A stretch of DNA of 64,000 nucleotides, taken from Acidaminococcaceae bacterium (GTDB taxonomy: Bacteria; Bacillota; Negativicutes; Acidaminococcales; Acidaminococcaceae). The position numbers were made by a program, and so were the translations under genes. Shown piece after piece: positions 1 to 54,519 of the stretch. The stretch is taken from assembly GCA_045598345.1 (NCBI GenBank), contig JAZLLX010000093.1:54166-118165 (forward strand), written 5' to 3'. The notes beneath the pieces are model-generated. The model was not told the DNA's origin. It searched no databases and saw only the letters and a list, made by a program, of their open reading frames with translations. Each line of letters begins with the position of its first letter. The stretch's first letter is position 1.

Positions 1-3000
1 GCATTTTCTTCACCATATAATTTGATTCTGTTAATTGAATCAGTATTGCTCAAATCAATATCACTTACGATGGAATAGGTGCTTACTGAACCAGGGTCAA
101 ACTTATCAACAACTTTAGTAGCACCAACCGTAATATTAGGATCTAATATCTTTGCTTCTGAGAATCTGATTTCATGTGCCGGATCAATATTTGTTTTATC
201 ATCAGCAACAACAGTACGGTAATCAATAGTATGATTGTCTTGAATAATTTGTGCCAATGAATAACCTTCACGTAAGGTTATCTTAATATTGCCATGACCT
301 GTTTCAGATTTGCTGAAATCATATCTGGTACTGTTACTTGTTACAGTAGATACAACATTGTTATCAAAAGTTACAGTATTCTTACTAGGATTAGATTCCT
401 GACCGGTGACACTAACCACTAATTTAGTTGCAGTATTGCCAGTTTCCAATTCACCGGTAGGTTCTGCAGTAATATTGATGGATTTTAAAGTCAGCGTGCC
501 GGAAGCACTGTCTGCTGCGTTAATATAGTCGCCCGCTGTCCCCAAATCTTTACCGTCAGAATTCCAATTTGCCAGGTTAATATCAAAGGCAATGCCGGCA
601 CCTGTTTCTGCATTGAAGTAAGTGGTATTAACCGCTTCGTTAGTGTTGTTGATTAAATCAAATACACCATTTGCGCCTACATTGATTGTAGTTGCCTGAA
701 TATTACTTGAACCAGAACCTAATTTTTGACTGCTGTTGGTGGTCAATGTACCGTTAGAAATGTTCACAGTCATTTGCGCGCCATCAAATACAGCATTTTC
801 TCCTAACTTAACATCGGCGTTAATGATCAAGGTACCTTTACTTTCATTAGCAAATCCACTGTTAAGTGTTCCCGCAGAATTAAAGTTCAAAACGCCGTTC
901 TGACCTACATTGATAGTGGCATTGATAATATTGTCAGGACTGATTGCCAGTTTGGCATTTACATCATCTGCAATATTAAGTTTGCTTTGGTCAATAACGC
1001 CTGCAGTAACCGCAACATCGCCTGTAATGGTTGTTGTACCTGCACCGCCAATATTATTAATTAACGTACCGCCAGTAAGTTTCACACCGCCACCAACAGA
1101 TTTATTAGTTACAGTTCCGCCAATATTATCGGCATTTGCCACCAAAACATTGAAGTTGGCATCTTCCACAATCATGGACTGGCTGATGAGGTCTTCTACA
1201 GTAACGGTGCCGCCATTGACAATTACTGTTCCGCTGCCGGATACTTTTTCATCAAGAGTGCCGCCTGTGAGGGTTAATTTGCTGTTATTATTGATTAAAT
1301 CGTCACTAATATTCAGGTAATCTGCATTTGTCTGAAGTTCGCCCGCATTAATGAATAATCCCTTTTGCGTAATTGCTTTAGTATTGGAATTTGTGATGGT
1401 GCCGCCATCAATATGCAGTTCGCCAGTTTTTATAGTTTCATTGTCAAGAATATTGTTTCTTAAAATATAACTGTTAGCGGTATTGATTGACAAAATACCA
1501 CGGTTAATAATATCTTCCGCAATATACAAATCATCCAAAGTGGAGGTGAACTTGGAACCATTATCTATCTGCAATTCTTTCTGGGTAATCTTAACGCCAC
1601 TGTTAATAATAGCTGTATTATCAGTTGCATTACCGGTAATATGGAGAACACCCATTGTTGCCTGACCTGCATCAGCAGAAATTTCCTTCCTAATGCTGCC
1701 GTTTCCGCTTATATACAAATCACCAAGATTTTGAACGGTAGAACCAATATTACCAATATCAATCCGTAATTCACCACTGTTATCAACTTTAATGCTATTT
1801 GCAATATGTGCCGCAGCAGTAATCTTACTGTTATCTGCTACTACAAATTTGCCGTCACCGTCAACAGTATATTCAAAAGTATCTGTACCTGTTAAGGTTA
1901 AAGTGCCGGCATTGGAAACCAAACCGCCGCCAACGGTCAAATTGTTACTATTGATAATCAATCCGCCGTTTTCAGCAATAGTCAGACGATTTTGGTTAAT
2001 GCTTGCACTATTAGTATTGGCATCAATAGTACCTGTAGTAATGGAAAGTGCACCTGTAACAGCATTATAGCCAACAATATTATTCTTAAGTTCTTTTGTC
2101 CCGTCAGCACTTAAGATTAATTTGCCTGCATTAGCGATTGCATTTGTCAGGGTGAGTTTTGCAATATCCGAAATGAAGGTTGCCTTATCCATCACAATTA
2201 ATTCTTTTTGAACAATGTTCTTGGAATCAGCCGGCATTTCGGGTACATCTTTGCCTATTTCACCATTACTGATAGTGTTTTGGGTAATTATTAAAGTGCC
2301 GGCACTGTTAAGAATGTTGTTCTTAATCGCAGTAGGCGTTTCATCTTTTGCGTTCAAATTCAATGTTCCTGCGTTATCAATATTGTCTGTAATGGTAAGA
2401 TTGCTTAATTCAGAAGTGAAGGATGCACCATTCTTCACATTCAGCTGGTACTGGTTAATGAACATATTTTGCTTGTTGATTACATTACCAATAATATTTA
2501 ATGTGCCATGTTGTGCCGCTGATGTTTCAGTATTATCCCCATTAATGTTGACTTGAATGATATCGTTTGCCAATCCCGTCTTGCCTAAATTCAACTCGCC
2601 GGTATTGACAGTAATGCCTTTAAGTGCGGAGGCAGTGGTTGTCAAAGTGCCTTCATTGTTGATTGTACCGGTAAGTTGTTGTCCGTCTGTTTGGGCAACT
2701 ACAGTTGCACCGCTGTTGATTTCTAATTCATTTTGAACATCTTTAGTCAAAATAACTGTGCCACTGTTAGCAAATTCCACAGTACCTTCACCGGTGAAGG
2801 AAGTATTGAACTCAACATTATCAGCAGAGCCGTTAAGAATTAATCTGCCTACATTAGCAATGCTGCCATTGTTAATATGTAAGTTTGCCGCACCAACGGT
2901 TAATTCACCATTGGAATTGGTAATAAACAAATTGCCTTGGGTAATACTGTTATTCGCACCAAATGTAACGGTTGCATTGTCTATGCTTAAGGAACCGCTT

Positions 3001-12000: not shown

Positions 12001-15000
12001 GTGGTAACCAAACCTGCAGTAATCTTATCCGTGCTTGCGGTAATGCCATTCTTCGCATCCGTATCGCTCCAAGTTCCGCCGAACGCCACATCAATATTCA
12101 GTTTTGCACTGCCGCCCAAGGTATCGGAAACAACAATAATATTGTTGGCGCCGCCCGTGGCATTTCCTGTTTCTGTCAGAACAGTACTCATATTGATAAT
12201 TGCATCAGTTGCATTCAACGAATATATGCTTAAGGCCTGGGCATTGAGCATAAGTTCTGCACCGCTTTCCAAAGCAACTTTTTGGTCGGACATGGTGCCA
12301 CCGTTCATAATCAGTTGCTTGCCGGTTGCAACTTCAACATTACCACTTTCTTTGATTGCTTTAGACAATTTACCGTTTTCTATAAATCTTACTGTACCTT
12401 TATTGGTAACTTCATCGCCCTTAATATTATCTGCATCAATTTGCAGGGCGGCACCTTCAGCAACACTAATCTTGCGTTCAATGTCTTTTTGGGCAATGAG
12501 GGTAACGTCCTTTTCAATATTAACCCTGTTACTGATTACTTCAGTAGCAGTAATATTGCCGCCTGTACCATTGAATGTCAGAGTGCCTTCGCCAGTAACA
12601 TTCTTATTAAAGGTTGCATCTTCATTTATATTCAGGGTGAGTTCGCCCTTATTGCTGATTTGGGTATCACCAATAGTTAAAGCGGACAAAGCGGTGGTCA
12701 GACCTGCTTTTTCGGCAATGGACAAACTCTTTTGACTGATTGTTTTGTCAGTATTCTTAATAATGCCGGAAAGAATGTTCAAGGAGCCGGTAGTACCGTT
12801 AAGATTATTTGCCAACTGGCTGCCGGTTGAAAGCCCTTTCAAATTCAAAGTGCCTTCATTAGTAACATTTGCATCTGTAATTTCCAAATCAGTGATATTG
12901 GCAGTTAAAGCGCCGGTGTTTTCAACATTTAAGGTCTTTTGAGTAATCTTTTCCCCTTCAGTAAGGGTTACTGCCCCATTAACATTCAAGATGCCGGTTT
13001 TTGTGCTGCCGATGTCAGTAATACTGTGCGCCAATGTGCCATCGCCTAAGTTAACAGTACCTGTGTTGGAAATATCATTGCCAACATTCTTGGCATCAAC
13101 AGTTAACTGGCCGGCATTTGTAACCGCATTTTCTACGGCACCGGTAATCTTGATAACAGTGGTATTGTCAAGATTCAGTTTGCCGGAAATGCCGGTAATG
13201 CTATGCTCAAAGTCGTCGGTTGCAACGCCGCTGAAGTTCAAAGTACCGGCATTTTTGATTTCCGTATCAGTAATTGTCAATTGTGGCAGGGCGATGGTCA
13301 ATGCCGTACCATTTGCCAATTCCAATGCCTTTTGACTGATGGTCTTAGTATTAGCATTAAATTGACCTTTAGCGATAACCAAAGTGCCAGTATCACCGGC
13401 AATATTATTAACTAAGTCATAGGAACTGTCGCTTTCCAAGACCAAAGTGCCGTTATCAGTAATTGTACCATTAGTAATAGTGATTCTGTTGACATTAGTG
13501 GTAAATTTGCCGCCAGCGTTAACAGTCAAATCCTGTTGGGTAATTGCCGCATTATTGGCAACAGTACCTAAAACTATTATTTCACCCTTGGCAGTTTCTG
13601 TACCGTTGCTGACATTCTGGGTTAATTCACCATCATTTAATTTCAATGTGCCTGTGTTGGTGACAACATTTTTCAATCCTGATGCATCAACAGTCAATGT
13701 TCCCGCATTTTGAACTTTGTTTTCAATGTTCTTGCCTTCGGCAACAGTAACTTTGGCATCTGTTGCATTAATCTGCAACAAACCTCTACCTGACAAATCT
13801 GTACCAATTTTAACATTATCGCCCTTCAGTATAAGGTTACCGTCATTGCTTAAGGTTTCACTGATGTCCATGTTGTTCGCATTGATATCCAAAGTGCCAT
13901 CACCATTGATGGTCAAACTCTTTTGTTTCAATTCCTTATTACCGTTAAAGGTAACAGTTGCCTTGTCAATGATTACAGAACCGTTATATGTTCCGTCCGT
14001 ACCGGTAAGGTCCGCATCCATGCTAATTGTTCCATTATCAAATTTGACAGTGCCTGCCTTGTTCAGTATGGCAGAAGCAATGGTCATAGTGCCGCTTCCG
14101 TTACTGATATTTACAGTACCGTTTTCGTTCTTAACGATATAGGAAGTAAAGTTCTTAATGGTGGTAATATTTTCCAAATTCAGAGTATAAGCCGCATTAA
14201 TTTCAATACCGTCAATCCAGTTGCCGGTATCACCGTCATTGCCGCCCAGTAAAGGATGTACGCCGTTGCCTGTAATAGTAAGTTCACGGTAAGATTCCCC
14301 GGACATGGGTGTTAATCTGCCTAATGCCGTACCGGTAGTGGGTTCATGTTTTTCATTATAGTACCTTACCATGCTCTCCTGGTCATATACATCCTTGGTC
14401 AATTGATATTTTACAGTGGAACCGGGTTCTTCGCCTTCTTCCAAATCAAGTGCGCTTTGGGTGTTACGGATTACCTGTGCCAAACTCCAGCCGTCAAACT
14501 TCGTAACTTTAATGCTGCCCGCTTTTTCAGCATTATTTTCAAATCTGTAGCGGTAATCACCTAAAACGGTTGTGATGGCTTTATCGCCGAAAGTAACAGT
14601 AACATTACTGCCGGTAATCAAATCAATATAACCTACGCCCTTGGTCCCTAATGCACCTGCACCTTCAAACATACCATTGGTAATGTTGATTTCCTTCAAA
14701 GTAATAGTTCCGGTTGCATTGGTAACATGAATGCCATCCACCAAATCGCTTGCCACAGTTGTGCTGTCTTCCCTTAAGCCGCTTAAATCAACATCAAACA
14801 TAATTTGACTGCCTTCTGTTGCAGTAAGAGTGCCTACGTCCAAAGTGGAATATGCACTGTTCTTCATATCCAAAACTGCGGCACTGTTTAATGTCAAAAC
14901 ATTTGCGCCTAAAGTATTGTCATTGGTGGTCAAGGTCTTGCTGCTGTTAACGGTAACATCCACATCTTGGAAAGCGGCGGTGCTGCTGCCGGAAGTGACT

Positions 15001-18000
15001 GCAATATCTGCATTCAATTCAACATTACCGGTACCGGTAACCTGTTTTGTGAAATTGCCGCCTTCAGTGATTTTCAGTTTGCCACGGTTTTCGGATTCGG
15101 TTTCCAGAACCACATTGCTGCCCAGGTTGGCAACACCAATTTCCAAAGTTGAGCCCGCATTAATTTCAATACCGCCTGTCTGAGTAATGCTTGCTTTGGC
15201 AAATACAGTATCAGTTCCTGTTCTGCCAATTTCCGTCTTGCCTGTGCCTTTTACTTCATAATCCAAATCACCGGCGCCTAAGGTTAAAATGCCGGCATTA
15301 GTAACTTCACCGCCCACATTATCCGCATCAATAATAAGGCCTGCACTTGCATTTACATTCATATTTTGAGAGATTTTTTCCTTGGCGGTGGTTGTCCCTG
15401 CACTTACCAGGACGGAACCTATGCCGGTTACTTTAGCGTCCAATGTACCGTCTTGGGTAAATTCCAGACCATTAGTAACACTGTTATAGATTTGCTTATC
15501 TATAATTATTAAGTTGTCCGCATCCGCAACTAATTTGCCTTTAACAATTTCCAAACTGTTCTGGGAAATTGTCTTGGCTGCCGTAACACGGACAGTATTG
15601 CCGTCAATAACCAGAGTGCCGTGCTCGCCGTCTTCGGAAGAACCGTTAATGTTATTTTGTAATGTTATATCTTCAGTACCTTCAAAAGTTAAAGTACCAA
15701 AGTTCATAATATCGTTGATTTCAGTTATGTGCAATCTCTCCAGAGCAATCTTCAGGGACGCCCCCTGGTTAATCTGCAATTTGTCTTGCGTAATTCCAGT
15801 AGTTTCGGTTGCACTTATGTCATTTACATCTACATTCCCTTGAATAATGGTTGTACCTTTACCGGTTGCAGCACCATTTGTAATATTCTTGGACAAGGTG
15901 CCGTCATAGAGATTCAAAGTTCCTGTATTGGTTACCGCACCGCCCACATTGGTGGCAAGAATATTAACAGTACCCGCATTGTCAATTGTGTTGTTAATTG
16001 CTTTGTTTGTCACAGTGGCAGTCAAAGTGCCTGCTGCAAGAACATTATCCGCATCAATTACTTCTTCACCTTTGACTACAACTCTGTTGGTAATGGTTTC
16101 CAAAGCATTGATTTGTGCCGCATTATCAATATACAATGTACCTTCTGCTGTATTAACCTGATATTTCAAATCACCGGCACCGGTAAGGGTCAGATTGCCC
16201 TTGTTTTCAATTTGGGTGGCAGTCAAACTGATGGTGTTGACACCAGTAGTAACATTTGCACCATTGTCAACAATCATTCTTTCCTGTTTAATCTGCTTGT
16301 CGCTTGTGTTGGTAAAGTGGCCGGAAACAAATTCCAAATCGCCTGTCCTGACTTCTTTACTGTCAACAATATTATTGGCCAGATTAGCGGCGCTGTCCTC
16401 TGAACCGCCTCTCAATTGCAAAGTGCCTGCATTGGAAATATCTGCAGCACTGATTATCAAATTATCCAGTAAAGCATTGAGTTTGGCAGTTTCACCGGTA
16501 ATGCTCAAATTCTTTTGGGTAATCTTGACAGTGTCCGCTACATTTACGGTACCGCTGATTCTTACGCTGCCTGCGGAAGCGGTTGCACCGGAACCGTCAG
16601 AAATATTATGTACAAGATTCGTATCGGAACCGCTGGATAATTCTACTGTGCCGGTGTTAGTAACATCAGCATTTATGTTACCTACCAAGGCCTTTAAGGT
16701 ACCAGCGTTAGTAATGCTTGTCCCAACAGATACCCCATCGGAAGCAACTGCCAGTTTGCCGCCTTCGGCGTTGGCAACAAGGGTTGCACCTTCGTTGACA
16801 ATGACATTATTCCCAATGGCACGCAAAGCGTTTACGGTGCCTGTGCCGGTTACAACAAAGTTACCGGTACCGGTAATACCGTTTTGCAAGTCGCCTGTTT
16901 CACCGGCAACAGCATTCATGGTAATGGTGCCCTGGTTGGAGATAGTATCGGATGCAACATTACCAATGACCAGTTTGCCTGCATAAATATTCAAATTGGC
17001 ACCGGTTTCAAGGGTAAGCGCTTTTTGTTCCAAAGAATTACTGCTGAGATTGTTGTCCCGTTTCATATTCAGTGTTGCATTTTGTTTAATGGTCAAGGAA
17101 CCGCTTGACCTGCCCGCATCGGATGTAATGTTATTTTGCATCGTAACAGTATTGGCAACAGTCAAACTGCCCGTACTGTTGATACTGTCCTTAATGGTTG
17201 TCGCTTTGGTTGTGTCTGTGGAACCGACAATGTTTACAGTACCTGCGTTAATAATGAAGTTACCGTCAAATCCTTCAATAGTAGCCAGTCCCTTTAACGT
17301 GAGTTCGTCACCGGAACGGAGAACTGCACCTTGATAACTGTTACCAAAGATATTGGCTTTATTCTGGCCGTCAATAACCATCTTACGGTAATTGGCACGC
17401 CATGTTGCTTCACTTGTTCCATCTGCTGAATCCTGTTTCAGGCCGCTGAACATTCCGAAATCATCCGTTGTAACGTAATCTTCTTCCAAAGTGTATTCGG
17501 TAACTGCGGAACCGCCGGTAACAGTATCGCCTGCCAGATAATATACGCCGGGTTTCTTTTCAACATCTTTATTTTGAATAACTTCACCAAGGGTGAATCC
17601 CTGCCCTTTGCTTACTACAACCTTGCCGCCTCTGCCTTCTTCTTTTTGCGTAAATTCATAAGCATAAGCGCCACGATATACTGTTGTGCCTTCAATAGTA
17701 ATGGCATCATCACCAGTAATCTCAACCAAGGTTATTTCACGGCTGCCGGAACCGCCGGACCAACCGCTGATAAAGTTGATTCCTTCCAAGGAAAGTGTTG
17801 TTCCTGCGGCAACACCTGCTTTGGCAACAATTGTATCAGTAGTAACATCAATAACGGTTGTTGAGCCGGAGCCGGAAGAACCGCTGAAGGCAATATCAAA
17901 TTTCAAAAGTGCCTTGCCGCTTAAGGTATTTTCTAAAGTAAGTGTATTGTTGGGAGCGGCAGTTCCGCTGCTGACTGTACTCATATCCAGTACTGCGGTA

Positions 18001-36000: not shown

Positions 36001-39000
36001 AGGGAAATGTTTTTGTCGTCAGCGGTCTTCAAACTAATATCTTTGTCCGCCTCAATAGCGGCAAACTCGGCATCCCCTGTGCCGGTTAAAGTAATGCTGC
36101 CGGCAGTTGCTGTCATTGTATCTTTGGCTGTAATGCTACCGCCGGTCAAAGTGATGTTTCCGGCTGTGGCAGTTACGGTATCAGCAAATTCAGCGGTGGT
36201 GAAGGTAGAAACAACACCTGTGCCTGCCTGAACCGCACCGGCAATTTCTAAAGTACCGCCAGTTAAAGTAACGATTTCACCACCGGTAATGTCATTGGCA
36301 ACAGAAAGTTTAGTGCCACCGGTCAAAGTTACATCATCGGAGCCATTGACTTTGCCTTGGATATTTACATTGCGGGTACCATTGACAGTAATAGTACCAC
36401 CGGTGGTCTTCAGCACTTCATCATCAATGCTGTCAACATAGTTGACAGTAATGTCTTTGCCTTGCAAATCTATATTCTTGCCCGCATTAATCTTCTTGAA
36501 AGTTGCACTGGCAGAAGTATCGCCATTCAAAGTAATGTCACCGCCTGCGGTCATGGATGCACTTGCATCCACAGAGTTGGCATGCATAGCAATATTGCCG
36601 GTGTTGGCAGTAACATCTTTATTGATATCCAAAATGCCTGCGGCAGTCAAAAGCACACTGCCTGCCGCTGCGGTAATGCCACCGTCAACAGTAATATTTC
36701 TGCCTTTAACATCAACAGTATTTGTTGTTGCAGCATTGCCTGTACCAGTTGCAGTAACAAGCCCATTTAATGTAATGTCATTACTATTTGTGGTCTTTAA
36801 TACCACATCCTTGTGTGCAGTCAAGGCATCAAATTCTGCATCGCCGCCAGTTGTAGTATTGTCCATTAAGATGCTGCCTTTGGCAGAAGTCATATCTTTG
36901 GCAATAATATCTTTAACATTTAAAATGATATTATTTTCGTTTGTCCCTGTGGTTTCTACATTGGCATTAAATTGAACCTTATTGCCTGAATATACAGTAA
37001 TGCCGTCAGTTGCAGATACTGCCCCGTCAAAGGTTGCAGTATTAACACCTGTTTCACTCGTACCAATGGATACGGTGCCGCCGGTGGCGGTAACACTCTT
37101 GCCGGATACGGAACCGCCGGTCAGTACCACATTCAAACCTTGAACTGCATCACCTAACTTAAGGGATGTAGTGCCGTTTAAGTTGACATCACTTGTACCG
37201 GTAACTGTGCCTTTCAGTTCCACTTCACCTGTACCGTTGACGGTAATTTTCTGTGCGGAAAGGTCTTTGTTGGCAATAATATTATTGCCCTGCAAATTAA
37301 TATCAGTGCCTGCTTTCAAATTATTAAACTCTGCAGTTCCTGCAGTTGCATATTGGGTCAAAGTAATGCTGCCGGCGGTGGCTTCAATATCACCGGTTGC
37401 AGTCACATTATCTGCCTTCAGAACAACATTATCAGCACCGGTTACGGTCTTGCCGGATGCGATGGTCAATTTGTTTGCCGCAGTAAGATTTACATCGCCT
37501 GCAGTTGTTGTAACATCTGCATTAACATTCACTTTGTTGCCTGTAACAATAACTGCGGCATTATCCTTCTTTGCAGTCCCTTGAGCAGAAACATCTCCGT
37601 TCAAGGTAATGTCCGCCAAAGCGCCGCCATTGAGTTCAATATAATCACGGGCAGAAATTCCCGCAAAGGTGTCAGTAATAGTTTCACCAGTTGTGCCGGT
37701 AACATTCATAACTACTTTGCCGCCAGCAGCATTCATGGCGCCGGTTGCAGTAATGTTCTTGACATCAAGAGTAATATCACCATTAGTTGCAGTAACTCCT
37801 TTAACTTTGGCGTCAATGGAGGAATATATTTCAACTCCGGTTGCACCAGTTACATTATCTTGCAGTTGGACATTGCCAATCTTATCACCGTCCGCTCCAA
37901 CAGTAACTTTAGCGGATTTTGCTTCAACGGTTCCTTCCGCAGTTACAGAACCGCCGTTCAAAGCGACAGACGCACCTTCAACCGCACCTTTTACCTGCAG
38001 GGAAACATCACCGTTCAATGTAACATTTTCTGTACCGGTAACTGCACCTTTTAAATCAACAATGCCTTTGCCGTTAACGCTAATTGTTCCAGAGGTAAGG
38101 TTATTGTTGGCAGTAATATCCTTGCCTTGCAAATCAATGAGTTTTCCGGCAGTTATGTTGTTAAAGGTTGCACTGACAGCGTTGGTATTGGGTGAAAGGA
38201 TAACACTGCCGTTTTCAGCAACAAGGTCGCCATAGGCAAGCACGGTTGCCGCATCCATAGTAATGGTGGCATTTTGTGCTTGGGCAGTAATAGCAGTACC
38301 TGCTTTAATATTTAATGTATTTTCAGCATCCAGGGAAATATTGCCCTTGGTTGCCGTAATATCAGCATTTACATTGAGGGTCTTGCCGCTAACTTCTACA
38401 CCATTAGTACCTTTCAAAGCATTGCCTGCGGCAGTAACTGCTCCGTCAATGGTAATAATGCTGTTTGTACCGCCGTTAAGGGCAACATAGCCGCCGGCAG
38501 AAACTGCAACAGTGCCGGAAGTAACGCCAAAGGTTGCATCCCCGCTGGCACTCATATCAATACTGCCTGCTGTCGCCGTCATAGTGTCAGCAGATGTGAG
38601 TTTATTGACTATTAAAGTAATATTGCCTGTTCCAGCGGTAACTGTATCGCCAAAAGCCACATTTTCGCTGGAATATACATTTATGGCATTGGTGGCGCTG
38701 ACTGCACCGGTCAGGGTTACGGAAGCAATTGGAGTATCTTCTGTACCAATGGTAATAGTACCCTTGGCAGAATCATCACTTGCGGCTGTTACCGTCCCTT
38801 GGGCAAGCACTTCGCCGCCGTTCAGGATTACATCCTGGCCTGCAACATCGCCTTCCATGGTCAAACTGATGGAACCGTTCAAATCCACATCGCCGCCGGT
38901 AGTGCTAACCTCCTGCCTGGTGGTAACGGTATCGCCCCTTAAAATAATATCTTTAGTGGCGGACAGGGTGTTGAAGGTTGCAGTGCCCACATGGCCTGCT

Positions 39001-42000
39001 TCATCCTCCATAAGGATGCTGCCGCCGGCAACAATACTGCCGTCAGCAGTAACATTTTTGGCATCAATGATTACATCCTCACCCGCCTTAACTGTTTTGC
39101 CCGTCTGAATGGTCAGGCCGTCCGCTATATTGAGGACTACATCACCATTTATAGTAGTGCCAGATACGTTGTTCACATCTGCGTTCACTTTCAAGGTCTT
39201 GGCAGTGATGGCAATGCCGGCGCCGTCAGTTGTTAATGCAGTGCCTGTGGCATTAACTGCATCATTCAAAGTAATTACGCCGGTATCACCGCCGTCAATG
39301 GTAATGTAATTCTTGGCAGTAATTGCCTGTAAATCCGCCTGGGCAGTTACACCGCTCAGGATAACACTGCCGCTTGCAGAATTGATTGCACTTGCCGGTT
39401 TATTGGCTTTAACAGTTGCACCGGTAATGGAGATATCGCCTGTACCCTCATTGGTTACAGTGCTGTCAAAGGTAAAGGTGTTTGCATAAACATCAATGCC
39501 ATCGGTTGCGCTCATGGCGCCGGCAAATTTTGCACTGGTAACCGGTTTTGCTGAAGTGCCTACACTGAGAGTGCCGCCGGTGGCTGCAACAGTACTGTTG
39601 GCAGTTACAGTGCCGCCATTAATAACAACATCTTTGCCGCTGACTGCTCCTGTCATTGTCAAAGAAGTGCCGCCCGTCAAGGTGGCAGTTGCCGTATTGG
39701 CAGTTACTGCACCCAGTAACTGAACTTCGCCGTCACCTTCCACGGTAACTGTGCCGGCAGTAAGGTCCGCATTGGCGGTAATGTTATTGCCAAGCAAACT
39801 GATTATGTCTTTTGCGGTCAAGTTATTAAAGGTGGCAGTACCCGCCGCTTCACCCTTGTCAATTAAGTAGATACTGCCTTGTTCTGCTTTAATATCGCCT
39901 GTTGCAACAACAGTAGCGGAGTCCATATAAACATTGCCTTTTGTTGCTTCTACCGTAACTCCACCGGCAATAGCCAGTTTCTCGCTGGTGGTGAGAAGGA
40001 TATTGCCGTCAGTAGCGGTGGTATCGGCATTGACATTGATGGTCCTGCCTGCAATATCAATGGCTTTATCGGTAACTGCGCCTGTGCCTGTGCCTGACAA
40101 TTTATTTGTACCGGTGGCATTAACTTCGTCATTCAAAGTAATGGTACCGGTGGTGCCGCCGTCAACAGTGATGTAATTGAAGGCGGTAATTTTATCTAAG
40201 TTTGCTTCGGCAGTTACACCACTTAAAATTACGCTGCCGGAGCCGGATTTGATTTCATCTTTAGCCGTAATCTGGGCAGAGTCCACCTTAATATCGTTGG
40301 CAGAACCTGCACCTGTGCTTGTGGAAACAGTGGAATCAAAGGTAACAGAGCCGGCATAAACATCAATACCTTGGGCTGCGCTTAAAGCCCCTGTGAAACT
40401 GCCGGAAGTGATTTTGTCTGTTGTACTTTGACCTACGGTAATCTTGCCGTTTTGGGCAGTAATATCCCCTTGGGCGGTAACATTGCCGCCGTTAATAGCA
40501 ACATTGGTTGCACCAACTACCGCACCGCCGATACTGAGGGTTGTGCCGCCTGTCAGGGTAACTGCACCAACGGTGGAGGTAACAGCAACTTTTTTGCCAT
40601 CAGTCGCTTCGGCAGGAACCGCCCCTTTCAAGTCCACGATGCCACGACCATTTACGGTAACTGTGCCGGCAGTAAGGGCCGCATTGGCAGTAATGTTATT
40701 GCCAAGCAAACTGATTTCTTTATCTGCATTCAAGTTGTTAAAGGTGGCAGTATCGGCGTTATCTTTATTCAGTAACTTAATACTGCCTGTGGTGGCGTTA
40801 ATGTCGCCCGAAGCGCTTACGGATGCGGAATCCATAATTACATCGCCTTGGGAGGAAGTAACGCTCTTGCCGCTGCCAATGGTCAGTACACCGGCGGTGG
40901 TGAACTTCACATCACCCTTGCCGGCAGTAATATCTGCCTGAACATTGATATTGTTGCCTTTTACTTCCACGCCATTGCCGTTTGCAGAACCATCAACTGC
41001 TTTGGCAGTTCCATCTTCTGATGTTGTAACAGTACCTGACAAAGTGATATTGCCTGTGTCGCCGCCCTGAATATCAATATAATTCTTGGCGCTGACTGCC
41101 TGCAAGTCCGCAGAATCGGTTACGCCGTTGATAATTACTTTGCCCATGCCGGAAGTGATGGCGCCCCCAGCCACTAATTTTTGAGTATTTAACGTAATAT
41201 CGTTATCAGCAACACCGCTATTTCCACTATCTTGAGTGGTAACGCTGGAGCCAAAGGTAAGATTGGTTGCATCAATAGTAATCTTATCCGTTGCACTTAA
41301 AGCGCCCTGCAAAGTTGCGGTGCCGACAGTGCTGTCCTGACCAATCTTAATTTCACCATCAGTGGCAGTAATGGTGGCAGTTGTGGCAGTTGCTCTAACG
41401 GTAGCGCCGTCCAAGGTTACGGCAGTGCCGCTTACCGCACCGTCCATAGTAAGGGTGGCGTCTGATTTCATGGTGACAGAGCCGTTACCTTCGCTGTTTG
41501 CCGCTATAGTACCGGTTACAGTCCCCTTGGTCCAAACATCGCCGGTACCGATAATATTGATAGTATTAGTTAATAAATTATTGTTGGCAGTGATTGCCTT
41601 GCCCTGCAAATCAATTTTGTTCAATGCCTGTAATTCGTTAAAGGTGGCACTGACCGCATTAGCGTTTTCAACAAGGGTAATGCTGCCATTTGTTGCCGTA
41701 ATCTTGGTGTCGGCAGCCATTTCCACGGTAGCCGCATCAAGGGTAACATCCTTATCTGCAGTAATATTGCCTTTAATATCCACTTTGCCTGTTTGGGCAG
41801 TCAAAGAGGCACTGCCTGCTGTGGCAGTTACGGAAGCGCCGTTACCGATATTGATATCCTTGCCGGTAATGGTTACGGCGTCAGCAGTGCCGGCAACATC
41901 AGTACCGTCGGCGGTCAAAGTGCCGGACAGGGTGACAACACCTGTTCCCGAATTGAGGGCGATTGTCTTGCCTGCAGCAATATTCTTCAAAAGAATGTCC

Positions 42001-45000
42001 CCGGTAGTGGTGGTCATGGCAATATCCCCGCCGGAAGCGGTTACATTGCCCAGACCTTCGCCCGCCGTATTGGCCGTAACGGATTGGGCGTTAATAGTGA
42101 TATTACCTGCATTAGCAACCGCATTGGTAGCAAAGGTCAGGCCGCCTGTAGCAGTTACAGCAATTCCATTGGCGGCAGTAACATCTTTGTTAAAGTTCAC
42201 TGTTCCTGCATTCGTTGTGGAATTGCCGACAGTAATTGCCCCTGTGGTGGATGTGACTGTGCCTTTGGCAGTAATATCCGCACCGTTCAGGGCCACGGAA
42301 GTGCCGCTGATGTTGCCGTTGACAATCAGTTTGGTCCCGCCGTTCAAGGTTACGGAACCGTAACCTTCACTGTCGGTTGAAGTGGCGCCGGTAACCGCCT
42401 GGAGAATTACTTCACCGGAACCGTCAACAACTACAGTATTGGTACTGAAATCTTTACCTACTGTAATATTATTACCTTTTAAGTTGATTTCGTCTTTTGC
42501 ATATAATTGTTCAAAAGTTGCTTTATTAAAGGTTGTATTTGTATTATTGAGGATGATGCTGCCGTTGGTGGCGGTAATGGTGCCGGTGGCAGTAACATCC
42601 TTAGCATTCATTATTACATCGTCATTGGCAGTTACGCTGCCGGGCAGGGTCAGGGTGCCGGTGGCAGTGAGTTTTACATCGGCGCCTGCGCCTGTATTGG
42701 CAGTAATAGTTGCATTATTGCCGGATGCCGTAATATTGTTGGCGCTGAGGGTAACCCCGTTTGTACCGCCCGAAGTAATGGCATTGTCAAATTTAATTTC
42801 TTTGCCGGTTGCACTCATGCTAATATCCCCGCCGGCAGTAACAATGTGCAGGGACGCATCCCCCGTGCCGGTCATGGTAATATTACCGGTCTTGGCCCAA
42901 ATTTGCGCTCCGGTTGCGGTCAATTTTTCGTTTTCCAAAGCAATATCGCCTGTGGTGGCAGTCACATTACCGTCAAAGGAAATTTCACCGTTGCTTAACA
43001 TAGTAATGCCATTAGCGGCAGTAACAGTGTTATTGAAACTTGCAGATGTAACATATTTGTCAGTCCCACCGACCAAAATTGCACCTTCGGTGGAGGTTAC
43101 GCTCTGCTCTGCATTAATTTCTCCGCCCAACAATGTGACAACGCTGCCCTCAACAGTTCCCTTGGTTCTTAAGGAAGTGTCGCCTTCCAGGGTGACAGTA
43201 GTTGCGCCTGTAATATTGCCCTTTGCCAATACTTCACCGCTGCCGTTGACATTGATTGTGGTTGCGTCAACCGTCTTGTTCAGGGTGATTTTATTGCCCT
43301 GCAAATTAATATTGGCCGCTTTCAGTTCGTCAAATTCCGCACTGACTGCGCCTTCGGGTTTGGTTAAGGTAATATCCCCTTCTGCCTCAATCTTGGCACT
43401 TGCCTGTACGGTCTTGGCATTCAAATGCACATCTTTGGCGGAGGTGACAGCACCTTTCAAAGTAATGCTGTCCGTTGCAGTCAAATCAATGTCCCCTGCA
43501 GTGGTGGTAAGGGTGCTGACTGTAGTTCCCGCATTGATGGTCTTGGCGCTTACGGTAATACCTGCCAAGTTAGTGGAACCAACCGCCTCTACTGTATTGC
43601 TGAAAGTTACTTCCCCGTTAGTGTCTGTTACCTTAAATGTGGTACCGGCATATACAACATTGAATTTTGCTGTGCCGTTGGCAGTGATGTCAATAGCGCC
43701 TGCATTGGCAGTCAAATTATTTTGCGCTTCAAAAGTGCCGTTATCTCTTACCACAATATCTCCGGTGGTGGCGGTTGTGGCTCCGCCAAAGGTCAGGGAT
43801 TCTGCAATATCAGCAGTAATGCCCGTACCTGCAGTAACAATGCCGGTCAGGGAAACCTTGCCCGCCTCATCTCCAGAAGCGCCAATGGTCAAGGTACTTG
43901 CCGCATTTACTAATTTATTATTAGTTACATTAACAATATCACCGTTGAAGAAGATGGTGCCGCCGGAAACATCGTTCTGCATTTCCAGTTTGGTGTCGCC
44001 CACCATGTGAACACTGGTAGCACCGTTGATTGTACCTATTACTGTAACGGTGCCGGTGCCGTCAGTATTGATTACATTGGCGCCCATATTGCCGTTGACA
44101 GTAATATCCTTACCGTCCAAATCAATAGTGCCGTTGGTGGCGGTCAAGTCCTTAAATTGGGCGGAAACAGCGGTGGTCTTCTGGTCCAAACTGATGGTAC
44201 CGCCGCTGACAACGCTTAAACTTGCTGTTGCGGCTTCAACTGTATCCGCATTTACGATAATATCCCCATTGGTTGCAGTGGCGGTATTATTGGTTAAAGT
44301 CAATGTATTGGTGTCAAATTTAATATTACCGTTAGCAACATTAATATTGCTGCCGGAGGTAATGCTGCCCGCAGTAATTTCCATTGCGGTCTTGCCATCC
44401 GAGAGTAAAGTACTGCCTGCCACATTTACAACATCGCCCAAGGTAACGGTCTTGCCGGCGGCAGTAACCTGCATGGATTTGTTGACAGCCAACTCATCCA
44501 AAGCAACATCGCCGGTGGCAGTTACAAAGAGGTTGCCGGCTTTTGCCCAAACCTTTTCAGATGTAGTAAGGGTGCCGGTTTCTAATGTAATATCTCCTGT
44601 ATTAACAGTAACTTCTTTACTGAATGTTAAAGAGGTATCTGCATAAGCATTAAGGGTATCTGCAACAGTAACTGCTCTACTGAAAGTAACAGTTCCTGCA
44701 TGAGTTCCGCCATCGCTGCCATCGCCAATATTCAAAGCGCCTGTTGTGGTTTCAACTTCGCCTTTGGCAAGGACGGTGCCGCCGTTAAAGAAGATTGTGC
44801 CGCCGGAAACATCATTCTGCATTTCCAGTTTGGTGTCGCCCACCATGTGAACACTGGTAGCACCGTTGATTGTGCCTTTTACGGTAACAGTGCCGGTGCC
44901 GTCAGTATTGATTACATCGGCAGACATACCGCCGTTGACAGTAATGTCCTTGCCGTCCAAATCAATGGTGCCATTGGTGGCGGTCAAGTCCTTAAACTTG

Positions 45001-48000
45001 GCGGAAACAGCGGTGGTCTTCGGGTCCAAACTGATGGTGCCGCCGCTGACAACGCTTAAACTTGCTGTTGCGGCTTCAACTGTATCTGCTTTTACGATAA
45101 TATCCCCATTGGTTGCAGTGGCGGTATTATTGGTTAAAGTCAATGTATTGGTGTCAAATTTAATATTACCATTAGCAACATTGATATTGCTGCCGGAGGT
45201 AATGCTGCCCGCAGTAATTTCCATTGCGGTCTTGCCATCCGAGAGTAAAGTACTGCCTGCCACATTTACAACATCGCCCAAAGTAACGGTCTTGCCGGTG
45301 GCAGTAACCTGCATGGATTTGTTGATATTCAACTCATCCAGAGCAACATTGCCGGTGGCAGTTACAAAGAGGTTGCCGGCTTCTGCTGTAATTGTGTTTT
45401 TAGCAGTCAAAGCCACTGTATTCAGGGTAATATCCCCTGCAGTAGCAGTAACTGTCTTATCAAAAGTCAGGGAAGTGCCAATATAGGCATTGATGGCATT
45501 AGCTGCAATAACATCACCGTTAAAGGTTACAGTGCCGGCTTTGCCTGTGGAAGTGCCTATATTCAGAGCCCCTGCTGTGGTTGTAACATTACCTTTGGCA
45601 AGGACGGTGCCGCCGTTAAAGGATGCCGTGCCGCCTGTAACATTGCCCTGCATTTCCAGTTTGGTGGTGCCGTTCATATCAACACTGGTAGTGCCGTTGA
45701 TAGCACCCACTACAAGAACATTGCCGGTGCCGTTGGTATCAATTACATCGGCAGACATACCGCCGTTGACAGTAATATCCTTGCCGTCCAAATCAATAGT
45801 GCCGCCATTTGCGGTCAGTCCCCTGAAGGTTGCGGACACAGCAGTCCCCTTCGGGTCCAAACTGATGGTCTTGCCGGCAGTTTCCAATACCAAATCAGTA
45901 CTTGCCGCATTGACCGTATTTGCGGTCATGGTAATATTGCCATTGGTGGCAGTAACTGATTTATTGCTGCCCAAGGTCAGGGTGTTGGTAATAAAGTTTA
46001 TATCACCCTTGGTTGTGGAAACATCGCCGCTGGCAGTAATGGTTCCGGCAGCAACATAAATACCATAATCACCACTGGCTACCGCACCGCCGCCGGTCAG
46101 GAAAGTGCCGTCAGCATGAATATTGTTGTTAAAGGTAATATCCTTGCCATCGGCAGTGGTCATATTGATGTTGTCATAAGCGTTGACGGTATTGAACTTG
46201 GCGTTGCCCGTGCCGTTCAGTACCACACTGCCCTTGCCTGCAGTAATGGCGGCAGCGGTGGCGGTCAAGTCGCCCACATTAAACACAATATCGTTGTGGG
46301 CAACACTTGTGGAAGAAGTTGCTGTACCGGTTGAAACTGTAGCGCCGCCCAAGGTAAGGGAGGTGGTGGCATTGATTTCAATGCCGTCCGTTGCGGACAT
46401 GGTGCCTGAGAATGAAGCGGTATTAGTGGCAGGGGTGCTTAAGCCCGCAGTAATTTTGCCTCCTGTGGCAGTCATATTGGAACCGGCATTGCCCGTAATG
46501 CTCTTGCCTGTCAAATCAATGGATTTGCCGGTCACGGTGCCGCCGGAGAGGGTAACGCTGTTCTCGCCTTTGATGGCGATTGCACCGGTTGCGTTTATTT
46601 GATTGAATGTTACATCCGTTGTACCATCGGCTGTAACAGTGTTTGCCTGGGTTGCCCCGTTAACCGTAATGGCCTTGCCCTGCAAATTAATTGCCTGTTC
46701 GGCGGTCAGAGCGCTGAAGGTTGCGGAAACAGGGGTAATGCCATCTTTTGACAGAGTAATATTTGTTTTTGCATTGATATTGCCGGAATTGACGGTGGGG
46801 GCTTTCAGGGTTACGGAATCGTTAGAACTTGTAATTCCACCGCCAGTGGTAATGCTGGTGGTGCCGTCAATGGTAATGGCGTCAGCAGCACTTATCAAGC
46901 CCGTAACATTCACAATGCCTGCATCAATGTCAATGCCTGTGGCTGCTGTAATGGTGCTCCTGCCGGTCAAAGTGCCGGTAACATCCATATCAATGTTTGC
47001 CGCAACATCAACTTTCGCCCCAAATTCCGCATTGCCGCTGGCATTCAGGGTCAATGCCCCTTCAGTTGTAGTGAAAGTTGCAGTAGTGCCGGAAGCGGTA
47101 TAATTGCCCACATACATGGTTGCAGAAGCCGCATTAACTATTCCGGTTGTAAGAGATGCCACCTTGCTGGAAGTGCTTGAACCCACGGTTAAAGCATTTG
47201 CAGCAGTCAAATTCTTGGTGGTTACAGAGCCGGAACCGCCCTGCAAAGTAATGCTTTTTGCACTGATGTTATTGGTATTGCCGGTGCCGGCAACTTTGAG
47301 ATCTGCCGCACCTGTAAGGGTGAAAGCATTGCTAATGGTCAGATTGCCCGTAGCATTGGCAGTCAAGTCCTTGGTTTCAGTGATGTTGCCGCTGACGGTA
47401 ATATCCTTGGCGGACATATCTATCTTATTGGTGGCAGTCATATTGGCAAAAGTAACTGCACCGCCAGCATCAGTAACCTTAATATCATTGCCTGCGGTCA
47501 CTTTGCCCGTAGCGAGGACAGTATTGCCTGCCACAGTCATTATTATGTCATTAACGCCTTCAGCAGTCAGTCCGCCTGTGCCGATGTTCACACTGCCGCC
47601 AGTTGTGGAGTTAATACTGATATTGCCGGCAGTGGACTTAACAAGGCCCGTGCCGGTGGTAAAGGACTTGGAATCAACAGTAATGGCCTTGGCAGTCGCC
47701 GTGCTTTGCAAGCTGATTGCATTGCCGGCACCCTTCAAAGTGATATTGCCGCTGGTGGCAGACATAGCGCCTTTGAAGGTGGCGCTGGTGGCATTAGGAA
47801 CGGTAGCAGCGTCATTCAGAGTAATATTGCCCGTTTTGGCGGTGAGGGTGCTTTCCGCAGTGACAACCTTGCCGGTCATGTCAATTTGGGAGGAGGAAAC
47901 GGAATTCAGTTTCAGTTCATCCGCACCTTTCAGAATTGCTTCCCCCGTGGTGGTCAGACCCTTGACAAGGGTGACTTTGGTTCCGTTAAAATTAACTGAT

Positions 48001-51000
48001 TTGGCCCCAATGATCTCATTAAAGCTTACTTGGGCACCATTGAATGTAATTTGATTGGTTGAAGACAATTCCCCGATTTGAGACACTTTGGATGCAACGG
48101 TAGTGGTTAACTTAATATCCCCTGCGGTAGCGGTCAGTTTTTTGTTGGCAGTAATAACGCCTGCATTGATAGTGTAATCATTGGCCGTGCCCGTACCTGC
48201 AATGATAAGGGCGGTGGCGGCGGTCAGGGTTGCCGAACCTTTGGCATCAATAGCAGTTCCCGTGGAACTGAAATTCATGGTGTCACTGTTAAGAACCAAC
48301 GCACCGTTTGTGGTTTTTACAGTACCTTTGTAAGTGGCAGTACTGCCGGAAGTGCCAGATTTTTCCTCGGCTGTAATCTGTTTGGCAGTCAGATTGCCTT
48401 CAAAAGTGATGCTCTTGGCTGTAAGGGTCAGAGCGTTGGCAACAGTTACACTGTCCGCAGAACTGCTGCCCGCCTTAAAGGTTTCCGCAGAGACCTTCAT
48501 GAAGTCCGTAACATTAAGTGCCTTTGCCAAAGAGAACTGCGTGTTCAAAGTGGCATCAATGGATTTGACCCCGGCACCCTTCATGCCGGTCAGAACTTTC
48601 TTGAATGTAATGTTATCAGCAGTTGTAACTTTTAATTCACCAATATTAGCATCTTCGTCAAAAGTAATATTGGAAGCACTAACGACATTTAATTTATTGG
48701 CTATTGCCTTGCCCTTAAATTCCAACGCCCCGTTAGAACTGCCGGCTTTGCCGATATTGACGGTGGAACTTTCGGACTCAATGGCATTTTTGCCTGTAAG
48801 TCCCATATAATGAACGCCGTAAATGTTCAAAACCGAAGTGCTGCCCACGCTGACTATATTGCTGCTGACGGTGTTCACATTTTGCAGATTGATAGTGCCG
48901 GAATTGGACACAATAAGGGTGTCGTTGGCAAAACCCTTAATTGTACCCAGGTCCTCAAAGGTAAGGGTGTCACCCGCACGGACCGTGCCTGCCCCCGCAT
49001 CAACCGTGCCTGCCAGCACATTGCTGCCCGTACCTTTAATTGTCAGGGTACGGGTGCTGCCTTCGCCGGAAGTGATTTCTGCAGTATCACTCGCATTACG
49101 CTTGTGGCCCAAGGTCCCCAAACCGCCATAGTCATTATTGACCGTGTAAGTGCCGGCGGAAATATCATAGGTGTTATATTTGCCCTCCCTGTGATTATCC
49201 TTAAGACCATAGTAAGTGTCCAGGTAACCGCCGTTCACCAGAAGGCCGTTGTCAATGGTGGCCTTAACATTCTGGAAGGCCTCCGTCAGGGTGGACACAC
49301 CGGTCATATTGATTAAAATCCTGCCCTTGTCCGTCAAATCCTGACGCAGGAACACATGGCTTTCCTTGTCCTCGCCCAACAGATAGACAAAATCACTATT
49401 TTCGTAGCGTTTAGCAATATCTTTTTTTGCATCAGAAGCAGCTGCTTCAACTATCTTTATATTGTTCTTGTAGCTGAGATCCCCTTCAAACAAATCAAAA
49501 TAGGTGTGCCGTGAGATTGCTCCCGCCATATCAATATCCAATACGAAAGTACCGGAAGCCGCCCCCGTAAGTTTGATTCTGTCGTTTTTAACATTATTTT
49601 TTGTCGTGGAAGAGAAATCAATATCAAACTGGAGTTTCACATAATCACTGTCCCCGGAAGGAACCCACAGGCCTTTTACTGCAACCGTGTTGTAGGCATC
49701 ATTCTGCATGTCAATGACACCACTTTTGAGCATTGAGATTTTCGCCGCCGTACCCAAATTAGACGCAGTGCCCAACACCAAAGTTCCGACGGAATTCATA
49801 TTGACCGTAGCGCCCGTTCCTGTAAAGGAGTTAATCGTCATTGTGCCGGAATAACCTACGGTATTGGTTCCGCCCATAGCGCCGATGGAAATCAGAGCAT
49901 GGTGATTTACGCTCTGATAACCCGCTTTGTTAAAATTGGCAATGGTAACTGTTGCATAGGCACTGGCTGTCTGCTGTCCGGAGAAAGTGCCGACTGAAAC
50001 ATTTGCCTTAGATCCTACCGTCTGGACAGCATTAACCTGAAGATTGGAAACAAAAGCGGACGCACTGTTGTTAACAATTTGCGTTGCCCCTGCAAGCATG
50101 GCCCCCACAGAACCCGTCTGGCCGGCACTTATGCTCTGCGTTGCCAAAGTTCCCATCGTATCCACATGGCCGGTGCCGGCCGCAATCATCTGGTAAGCGG
50201 AAGACATTGTACCCACGCTGGCGTAACCGTTTCCGCTGATATATTGGTTGGCGCCCTGCATCAGGTCAACAGTACCTTTTGCCCCGTTGCCGGAAAAGGT
50301 CTGGTATGCCTTTGCAGTGCCGTTGTTCATAAGCGTGCCTATGGAAACATTTGCAGTGCCCCCGGAAACAACCTGGGTTCCGCCGGTCATGGTCCCGATG
50401 CTGACAGCCACATTATTGCCGCTCACCTTCTGAGTCATGCCCGTAGCCCCAACAACGGTAACTGCAGCGTTGTTGCCCACAATCTCTTGAATACCGTTCT
50501 CAATATTGGTAACAGTAAGTTTTGCCGCAGAACCGATGACCTGCGTTCCTTGGAGCACCAAATCCACAATAGCATTGCTCGGGCCTTTCGTTGCGGCTGC
50601 GCCCAGTATCTGCACTGCCAAACTGGACATAGTGCCGACACTGATATACGCAGACGCTGCGCTTTGAGTACCTTTGACAAATGTGCCTATAAAACCGGAA
50701 CCTGCATTGGCAACAGATTGAATACCACCGTTAGTAAGGATACCGATAATGCCGCTTGCCCCCGCTGCCACCAGTTGGGTCGCCAAGGCATTAATCGTAC
50801 CGATGGAACCGTACCCTGCGGACATAATATTTTGTGTTCCCGCAATACTCAAAGTTCCAATGTACCCTGCACCTCCCTTGGATACAACCATATTGGCAGA
50901 AAGCATTGTGCCTACGGAAGCGGTGCCGCCGGAATCCACCCGCACCACATTCGTATCGTACTTGTTGGCAGTGTTATATCCGTTTGCATCCCAGTAATGC

Positions 51001-53573: not shown

Positions 53574-54158
53574 TCACTCTTCCCCCTTTCCGAATCTTTC
53601 CAGCAGAATCTCTTTGAACCTGTCTGCAGGAACTATGAATTCCGTCCTGCCCCTGACCACCCTGGCAATCAGGTAACCCTTGTTGTATTCCCAGTTTAGT
53701 TTGCTGGTCTGGAGCACACCGTTCTGTATATATTTTTTTATCCGTTCCTGATTTGTAAAAATCCTTTCGTTGCTCACCAGGGAGGCCAGCGCCGGCTTGT
53801 CAACCAGCGGTGTATAAACGCTGTAGCGGTTCTGGCTGAAGTATTCCTCCAGGGCCTCCATCATCCGCTTGTCCTCACCGTAAAGCACCTTGAGGTACTC
53901 CCACATAATCATGCCGAACTGTTCCTCATTCCCCCGGTCAACATTGAACACGAAGAAAGCCAGTTTGGTGGCAAAATTCATAATCTGGAACGACCTCACC
54001 CCACGGAAGTCAAAGCCCTTGATGCCCCACGCCGTGAGAGGGTCCCATTTTTTTATTTTGAGCAACTGCATGGCAGGCACCCTGTCGCCCTCCGGCAGTT
54101 TGTCCGCCATGGTAATTGCAAATTTGTCCGCTAACCCTTGTGTAATGTGAAAAATCAT
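53574..54158 (-). CDS. Hypothetical protein (194 aa from ATG 54158; the track's 203-aa version starts at GTG 54185), first gene of the giant-protein operon
   Basis: The ORF is open with non-repetitive, normal composition (MIFHITQGLADKFAITMADKLPEGDRV...). Its stop is 1 nt before the BAHT ATG. GTG 54185 would lie ~12 nt from the predicted transcription start with no SD, so ATG 54158 is preferred (weak AAAGAG upstream). I cannot place the family with confidence. Confidence 0.6.
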   Translation of the reverse strand: MIFHITQGLADKFAITMADKLPEGDRVPAMQLLKIKKWDPLTAWGIKGFDFRGVRSFQIMNFATKLAFFVFNVDRGNEEQFGMIMWEYLKVLYGEDKRMMEALEEYFSQNRYSVYTPLVDKPALASLVSNERIFTNQERIKKYIQNGVLQTSKLNWEYNKGYLIARVVRGRTEFIVPADRFKEILLERFGKGEE

Positions 54159-54204: not shown

Positions 54205-54232
54205 ATTATAAGAGGAAATGCAAATTTTGCAA
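54205..54232 (-). promoter_or_regulatory. Sigma-70/SigA-type promoter for the small ORF-BAHT-giant gene operon
   Basis: On the minus strand: TTGCAA (54232-54227), 16 nt, TATAAT (54210-54205). An A11 tract (54250-54240) just upstream of -35 resembles an UP element. The -10 sits ~45 nt upstream of ATG 54158. Confidence 0.6.
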
Positions 54233-54495: not shown

Positions 54496-54519
54496 TTTTT
54501 TGCAACCGGAGGATGAACA

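Follow-up and report, generated by a model that had tools for sequence, protein, structure and literature searches.

The window analysed here, a 64,000-nucleotide stretch of contig JAZLLX010000093.1 from an Acidaminococcaceae bacterium (assembly GCA_045598345.1), is dominated by a single giant open reading frame (ORF) on the minus strand, which starts at an ATG at position 51965 and continues beyond the left edge. In a conserved operon it takes third place, preceded by a gene for a DUF6933-like protein of ~194 amino acids (aa) (53574-54158, minus strand) and by a gene for an extended autotransporter strand-loop-strand O-heptosyltransferase of the Aah/TibC family (51962-53572, minus strand), termed below the bacterial autotransporter heptosyltransferase (BAHT). 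The stop of the first gene lies 1 nt from the BAHT start, and the TGA stop of the BAHT gene overlaps the ATG of the giant gene (ATGA). Upstream of the small gene lies a promoter-like site, TTGCAA-16-TATAAT (54205-54232, minus strand), a consensus match only, which probably marks the start of the operon. Given this site and the fact that the relatives of the small protein described below all begin at the methionine of MIFHITQG, its true start is probably the ATG at 54158 and not the listed GTG at 54185. The small protein showed no family match other than that to DUF6933.

Computational translation of the reverse-complement frame from ATG 51965 to base 3 yields 17,321 codons with neither a stop nor a cysteine. 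As the frame lacks a stop inside the window and continues past its left edge, the giant protein must exceed 17,321 aa; its visible N-terminal part (3-51965, minus strand) has a mass of at least 1,758 kDa, an isoelectric point (pI) of 4.4 and 159 arginines. The remaining five frames over the same span contain 318-1,806 stops each, and the chance survival of 17,321 stop-free codons, at roughly 3 stops per 64 codons, is about e^-830. A Shine-Dalgarno (SD) sequence, GGGAGGA, is situated 6 nt 5' of the ATG. The initial annotation of this DNA is thus sustained in its central points, namely the uninterrupted frame of at least 17,321 codons leaving through the left edge, the strong SD sequence with ATGA coupling, and the lack of cysteine, which holds for all visible residues. 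It had further considered about 110 plus-strand ORFs to be shadows of this frame; shadows they are, but those of at least 60 aa number 136, the longest being 543 aa. It had also raised an in-frame stop and a collapsed array of repeats as ways in which the gene might prove illusory. No in-frame stop was found in the 51,963 nt. Tandem Repeats Finder (TRF) detected no tandem repeats in the window DNA, and the closest internal repeat pair of the giant gene spans 300 nt at 93% identity; with copies this diverged, a collapse of identical repeats is unlikely, all the more since related genes run uninterrupted on six contigs.

Two further features of the gene deserve mention. The pair sharing 300 nt at 93% identity consists of adjacent copies of module A, a repeat type described below (43942-45081, minus strand; aa ~2,295-2,675), and includes stretches of identical protein, the sole sign, in an array otherwise old and diverged, that a duplication or gene conversion took place recently. 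Separately, the GC content at third codon positions (GC3) drops steadily from the 5' end of the gene to the left edge, from 0.54 to 0.32, the flanking genes having a GC3 of 0.46-0.66, and total GC declines from 52% to 38.5%; relaxed codon selection, module age and transcription-linked mutation bias are candidate causes.

The same cassette is present on six independent gut-metagenome contigs (L001-L006), with frames uninterrupted over 7.7-29 thousand aa (kaa) and up to 87 kb; one of the samples is a horse-gut metagenome. Among the inspected contigs of the best BAHT matches, those of P0001, P0002, P0003 and P0150 carry the DUF6933-like gene, the extended BAHT gene and the giant gene. The giant genes of the relatives encode at least 7,723, 11,531, 24,080, 28,838 and 29,026 aa, each reaching its contig end and none being complete. 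On a further contig (L009, with P0009) a cut downstream protein has a similar leader and repeats, and no DUF6933-like gene lies directly upstream. Over its first 3,300 aa, the closest relative aligns collinearly with the window protein at 41% identity; identity falls to 28% for relatives further away, and the DUF6933-like protein is 63-81% identical across the cassettes. Beyond these contigs, the conserved small protein and its cassette were not found in GTDB species representatives or JGI metagenomes, scanning GTDB genomes with the 500 aa of the giant protein nearest the left edge, with confirmation by tblastn, gave no match, and an exact 41-mer search for the continuation of the gene gave none in JGI metagenomes or IMG/VR. 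An exact look-up of the protein sequence of a window glycosyltransferase likewise gave no match. The dN/dS of near-identical strains, calculated over the first 10 kb of the giant gene, is 0.35-0.48. This, taken together with the conserved leader motifs and the collinear relatives, establishes the giant gene as a real gene of a family under selection.

The second gene of the operon is, on sequence grounds, an Aah/TibC-type BAHT. It matches the NCBIfam equivalog TIGR04414 (hepto_Aah_TibC) with 496.4 bits against a cutoff of 200, covering profile positions 10-373 of 374, contains the Pfam domains TibC_1st and Glyco_transf_9, and aligns with the TibC crystal structure (PDB: 4RAP) at E 4.6e-107. 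All four iron-finger cysteines (C..C...C...C) align with Cys339, Cys342, Cys358 and Cys370 of TibC, and the catalytic region is ~48-50% identical to those of TibC and Aah. Among 4,243 homologs, the closest named ones come from Negativicutes (Phascolarctobacterium, Schwartzia, Sporomusa and Anaerovibrio) and are 50-57% identical over the catalytic 75% of the query. The distinctive feature of the window enzyme is an N-terminal extension of ~143 aa, a low-complexity segment rich in Pro, Thr, Val and Asn, which (aa 1-143) is probably disordered. Ordinary BAHTs, including TibC, begin near the equivalent of aa 120-144 of the extended form; the nine best matches (55-79% identity) all carry the extension, which is confined to BAHTs accompanying giant substrates (P0001-P0009). 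The BAHT is encoded directly upstream of the gene for its presumptive beta-helical substrate, the two overlapping by ATGA. As a member of a family characterised by heptose transfer from ADP-heptose to substrate serines and by a dodecameric ring, it would heptosylate the giant protein. A different layout is seen at another locus (L007:10001-17191; ENA ERZ27247193 k141_1364999), where a non-extended BAHT (P0011), 60% identical to the window enzyme, adjoins three small ORFs (68-139 aa) and two ATP-binding cassette (ABC) exporters, one with a C39 peptidase domain, and no autotransporter, suggesting a BAHT-type enzyme that acts on small exported peptides.

The domain order of the giant protein was derived from self-comparison and iterated hidden Markov models (HMMs). 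A leader (aa 1-110; 51636-51965) and a Tyr/Trp/Thr-rich region (aa 150-335; 50961-51518), both on the minus strand like all segments listed below and both conserved among the giant relatives, are followed by ~20 repeats of 19 residues in the style of AIDA-I and TibA (aa 336-725; 49791-50960), such as IGTMTGGTQVVSGGTANVS, with a lag-19 identity of 0.16. This repeat region is likely to be the acceptor region for the heptosyltransferase. The Tyr/Trp/Thr-rich region is without a homolog outside the giant relatives, and its structure is not predictable, the model having a predicted local distance difference test (pLDDT) score of ~25-35. Next comes the first of nine copies of a junction (J) domain of ~335 aa with a G[FY]SLAQ.IQN box (aa 674-1028; 48882-49946), and then an array of module A (aa 1165-5935; 34161-48473) comprising ~16 full and 3 partial copies of ~270-280 aa each, mutually 30-73% identical. 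The second J domain (aa 6133-6505; 32451-33569) leads to the module B array, with 17 copies of ~251 aa marked by an 'ITGGKI' motif (aa 6677-11215; 18321-31937). The remainder of the visible protein (3-18248) contains the seven further J domains (aa 11240-11580, 12286-12621, 13181-13512, 13981-14324, 15044-15401, 15971-16285 and 17013-17321), with sub-repeats of 80-150 aa between them; the last of these J copies is cut by the window edge.

An AlphaFold2 (AF2) model of module A, obtained with an alignment of its own 15 copies, is all-beta (pLDDT 97.1; predicted TM-score, pTM, 0.93), with strand starts recurring every ~19-20 residues. Foldseek searches with this model against PDB gave no match at E <= 0.001 (best E 0.5); the weak neighbours are all beta-solenoids, namely curli CsgA, HxuA, HMW1, EtpA (query-based TM-score, TMq, 0.57) and phage tailspikes. 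In profile searches of PDB, nothing significant was returned for module A, the DUF6933-like protein or the J domain, and Pfam and NCBIfam scans found no significant model anywhere in the 17,321 aa, which also lack a convincing transmembrane segment and an LPxTG motif.

The leader is composed of a polar extension of ~30 aa, a basic patch and an uncharged stretch of 21 aa from aa 33 (IAMMLAGLNAVNHVGGIAAGV), after which come a P/K/E linker and a 'YQ..S..N.AEA..SG' box. An uncharged stretch of 21-22 aa, starting at aa 32-33, is common to the four giant lineages; AIDA-I, Ag43 and a Salmonella autotransporter have extended signal peptides whose hydrophobic region starts close by, at aa 34-36. This layout resembles an extended type V signal peptide, albeit a weakly hydrophobic one, and the hydrophobicity of its 8-aa core (2.0-2.7 on the Kyte-Doolittle scale) falls among the values for the real signal peptides compared. 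The 'YQ..S..N.AEA..SG' box and a second motif, AIQD+..LAGLNA.N, are invariant among the giants. Alignments of the leader HMM with a Phascolarctobacterium autotransporter and with the L009 protein run N-terminus to N-terminus, which is suggestive but not significant. Sec targeting of the giant protein is accordingly plausible. Neither the N-terminal 600 aa nor an alignment of four N-terminal sequences found a homolog in word-indexed searches of 5.8 billion protein clusters, and a single-sequence AF2 model of aa 1-620 has low confidence (pLDDT 40). A flagellin-like or LXG-like leader, proposed from motif resemblance alone, was dropped, there being no Pfam support for it at E <= 10.

Besides the identity of the BAHT, which is the key clue, the giant protein is placed by its similarity to ordinary autotransporters at both ends of the visible sequence. 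With the last 1,200 aa as query, exhaustive HMMER searching of 1.84 billion representatives yielded only 26 matches. The best of these, at E 3e-35, is MDY6029219.1 (P0121), an autotransporter of 2,691 aa from an Acidaminococcaceae metagenome-assembled genome, which has a normal Sec signal peptide, two J domains (independent E-values 8e-41 and 9e-25) and a Pfam PF03797 beta-domain. Of the other J-domain proteins with a visible C-terminus, P0133 ends in PF03797 and P0127 in a terminus of the outer-membrane protein (OMP) type, ...KYNF, and several further matches of this query end in PF03797 or in OMP-like termini. At the other end, aa 346-643 match the passenger of a 1,139-aa PF03797 autotransporter from an uncultured Phascolarctobacterium (L010) at 29% identity and E 2e-9, and the gene for this autotransporter directly follows a non-extended BAHT gene. 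The same gene order and the same 4-nt overlap as in the BAHT-giant pair are seen in aah-aidA on an E. coli plasmid. Since both aa 346-643 and the last 1,200 aa match PF03797 autotransporters, both ends of the visible giant protein are related to ordinary type Va passengers, and the BAHT belongs to the enzyme type by which such passengers are glycosylated.

These observations argue for the giant protein being a heptosylated adhesin fibre of an uncultured gut bacterium, probably of the Negativicutes (Acidaminococcaceae-like), exported in the type Va style of AIDA-I and TibA, a reading to which we assign a probability of roughly 60%. The export route is one that we infer, as no C-terminus is visible and the signal peptide departs from the usual type. 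Under such a scheme the operon would be transcribed from a promoter near 54.2 kb, and the BAHT would add heptose in the cytoplasm to serines in strand-loop-strand turns, most plausibly those of the N-terminal 19-residue repeats. The unfolded, acidic, cysteine-free chain might then cross the inner membrane via Sec by means of its atypical extended leader, thread C-terminus first through a C-terminal outer-membrane beta-barrel of its own, 12-stranded in classical type Va autotransporters and predicted to be encoded beyond the window, and fold rung by rung outside the cell into a beta-solenoid. The rise of a beta-helix is ~0.48 nm per rung; at ~19-20 residues per rung, the visible part would form a fibre of at least 0.4 µm and the 29-kaa relatives fibres of at least 0.7 µm. 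The glycosylated AIDA-like head would come to lie at the distal tip and could act as an adhesin or an aggregation factor.

Several observations weigh against this reading. The C-terminus lies outside the window, and no beta-barrel is seen in any giant member, all being cut by contig ends. The Pfam passenger models AIDA, PATR and AC_1 have no significant match across all 17,321 aa; AIDA (PF16168) is absent even at E <= 10 for isolated regions, a model by which AIDA-I, Ag43 and a Salmonella homolog, used as controls, are recovered at E 1e-56 to 1e-98. Pertactin gives one sub-threshold match only, in a single J copy (E 0.008; 16.5 bits against a cutoff of 22). The leader lacks the features of a classical signal peptide and has no Pfam ESPR match even at E <= 10, its mean hydrophobicity over 12-15 aa is 1.4-1.7 compared with 1.75-2.5 in real signal peptides, and its HMM alignments are weak (12.8 bits for the Phascolarctobacterium autotransporter and 7.5 bits for the L009 protein). 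The DUF6933-like protein and the BAHT extension are without a counterpart in the canonical system. Finally, it is questionable whether type V export, being energy-free, could cope with a passenger 5-9 times the characterised lengths. One answer, which we put forward tentatively and regard as doubtful, is that the J domains act as serial autochaperones that ratchet a heptosylated beta-solenoid of ~0.5-0.7 µm out of the cell, the giants forming a type V family of at least 29,000 residues in uncultured gut Negativicutes, roughly ten times the length of the characterised passengers reviewed, whose unfolded substrate is handled in the cytoplasm by the extended BAHT and the DUF6933-like protein. The likeness of the J domains to Pertactin and to autochaperones is loose: besides the sub-threshold Pertactin match, the J profile gives no significant score against the AC_1/Pertactin regions of proteins such as AIDA-I and Ag43, and hhalign returns a probability of 16%. 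Their role as serial folding nuclei is conjecture.

The best-surviving alternative, which we nonetheless consider rather unlikely, is that a protein with autotransporter-type repeats is exported by other means, either by a type I secretion system (T1SS) with a C-terminal signal or by an undescribed route in which the leader is a targeting signal and the DUF6933-like protein a chaperone. The leader is of marginal hydrophobicity and is no classical signal peptide; its AIQD+..LAGLNA.N motif is invariant among proteins that are ~28% identical overall, which would be unusual for a mere signal peptide, and helices make up the first ~100 aa in the single-sequence AF2 model, at low confidence. The small partner, conserved as it is, is missing from canonical BAHT-autotransporter pairs, so that the leader and this protein could alternatively constitute a new export route. 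The size of the protein is well past that of known type V passengers, and the absence of cysteine and the acidic pI fit T1SS substrates as well. Against such a route, the 17,321 visible aa contain no RTX (repeats in toxin) nonapeptide, 2.2 being expected by chance for a loose motif, and no genes for an ABC transporter, a membrane fusion protein or TolC occur in the 12 kb upstream. Moreover, the repeat homologs with a visible C-terminus are all type Va autotransporters, and BAHTs are known only with autotransporter substrates, one unexplained exception aside. Of the two kinds of export protein suggested in the initial annotation, autotransporter passengers and T1SS adhesins, the former is supported, the protein being an acidic, cysteine-free beta-solenoid of that type, and the latter finds no support in the visible sequence.

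A two-partner-secretion exoprotein (type Vb, TpsA/FHA-like) is far less probable still. Such proteins can be giant and beta-helical, the weak Foldseek neighbours include HxuA, HMW1 and EtpA (the best at TMq 0.57), and some TpsA adhesins have dedicated glycosyltransferases (HMW1C and EtpC); yet the N-terminal TPS secretion domain is absent even at E <= 10, no TpsB/Omp85 gene is found upstream in the window, the partner enzyme is an Aah/TibC BAHT and not of the HMW1C type, and the Foldseek matches are all non-significant. The slimmest chance is that of a chimeric or collapsed assembly or a decaying pseudogene, which the highly repetitive architecture, the GC3 drift, the derivation of the ORF from an assembly and not from reads, and the absence of the source sequence from the collections searched might suggest, but which is at odds with the stop-free frame, the divergence of the repeats and lack of TRF arrays, six independent relative assemblies that are collinear and uninterrupted up to 87 kb, and a dN/dS below 0.5.

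Compared with Aah-AIDA-I and TibC-TibA of E. coli, the window system shares a heptosyltransferase gene immediately upstream of the substrate gene with an ATGA overlap, and a substrate in which an uncharged leader stretch at ~aa 33 is followed by 19-residue Gly/Ser/Thr-rich beta-helix repeats. It differs in scale, the E. coli substrates being ~1,000-1,500 aa long as against at least 17,321 aa in the window (at least 29,026 aa in relatives), in the lack of the Pfam AIDA, ESPR and AC_1 matches found in the former, in the extra ~143-aa BAHT extension and the extra conserved DUF6933-like gene, in its Firmicute-type diderm as opposed to proteobacterial host, and in that any C-terminal barrel of the giant protein would lie outside the visible sequence. 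The Phascolarctobacterium pair and MDY6029219.1 represent the closest named heptosyltransferases (50-57% identity), their passenger repeats being homologous to the N-terminal repeats of the giant protein in the former and to its J domains and C-terminal repeats in the latter. Unlike the giant system, both are ordinary in size, their signal peptide is clearly of the Sec type, and they have a PF03797 barrel and 0-2 J domains instead of at least nine; they lack both the DUF6933-like partner and the BAHT extension. We accordingly rate the system as the Aah/AIDA-I logic at 10-20 times the scale, with unannotated modules, an extended enzyme and an extra conserved partner.

Giant proteins of other kinds have been described in bacteria, including a parallel beta-helix protein of 36.8 kaa in Chlorobium chlorochromatii, Omnitrophota proteins of up to 85-147 kaa and RCC1-type giants in Oscillospiraceae. 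Since larger ones have been reported, the window protein is no size record, and the initial placement of it among the very largest bacterial proteins known was overstated. It resembles the Chlorobium and Omnitrophota giants in being tens of kaa long and rich in beta-helix, those proteins being thought to mediate cell-cell contact, but no sequence relationship to them was detected; the Omnitrophota giants contain many transmembrane helices and SecA-like or enzymatic domains, whereas the window protein has autotransporter-type repeats only and a dedicated BAHT. Characterised autotransporter passengers reach ~3,333 aa according to a review, and the full-text literature searched, including the Quinella paper, yielded no account of a giant autotransporter-like family coupled to a BAHT in Negativicutes.

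Type V secretion is thought to be ATP-free at the outer membrane and driven by passenger folding. A conserved, selected family whose passengers range from 17,000 to beyond 29,000 residues would probe how far such export can be stretched, and would offer a natural system for studying how vectorial folding can continue across hundreds of nanometres. BAHT-type heptosylation is known from virulence adhesins of enterobacteria; the family would extend it to diderm Firmicutes that live as commensals in the guts of herbivores and humans, where a potentially micrometre-scale fibre may shape aggregation or attachment. The giant protein is unseen by Pfam and NCBIfam and is fragmented in or absent from the protein catalogues searched, which shows how such genes escape standard annotation.

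The region upstream of the operon encodes a sugar/modification cluster (54520-61490, mixed strands), with two family 8 glycosyltransferases (GT8) on the plus strand and two DegT aminotransferases, two family 2 glycosyltransferases (GT2) and a radical S-adenosylmethionine (SAM) protein on the minus strand; it is syntenic with the locus of the closest relative. Further upstream are two paralogous ~300-aa proteins (61487-62431 and 62437-63339, minus strand) with no significant Pfam or NCBIfam match. They belong to a family with the motif 'WFYDDF..E.AYG.P..CIWNG', which is 40-60% identical across three lineages and always near the cassette (in the relatives at L001:1-855, L002:74-964 and L002:979-1872). 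A distant homolog of the FlmR/OhkR 'peptide arginase' (63364-64000, minus strand) runs off the right edge; its NF052474 score of 89.8 bits is well below the cutoff of 350, and its identity to the FlmR_OhkR_N genes found in the relatives (L001:8017-8940 and L002:1902-2789) is 38-41%. Like the ~300-aa family, such a gene precedes the giant gene in each of the three lineages, at a distance of no more than ~10 kb, and, speculatively, may encode another modifier of the giant protein, which has only 159 arginines in 17,321 aa. A 285-aa minus-strand ORF (54457-55314) with no family match lies wholly antisense to one of the GT8 genes (54520-55374, plus strand) and is most likely a shadow ORF.

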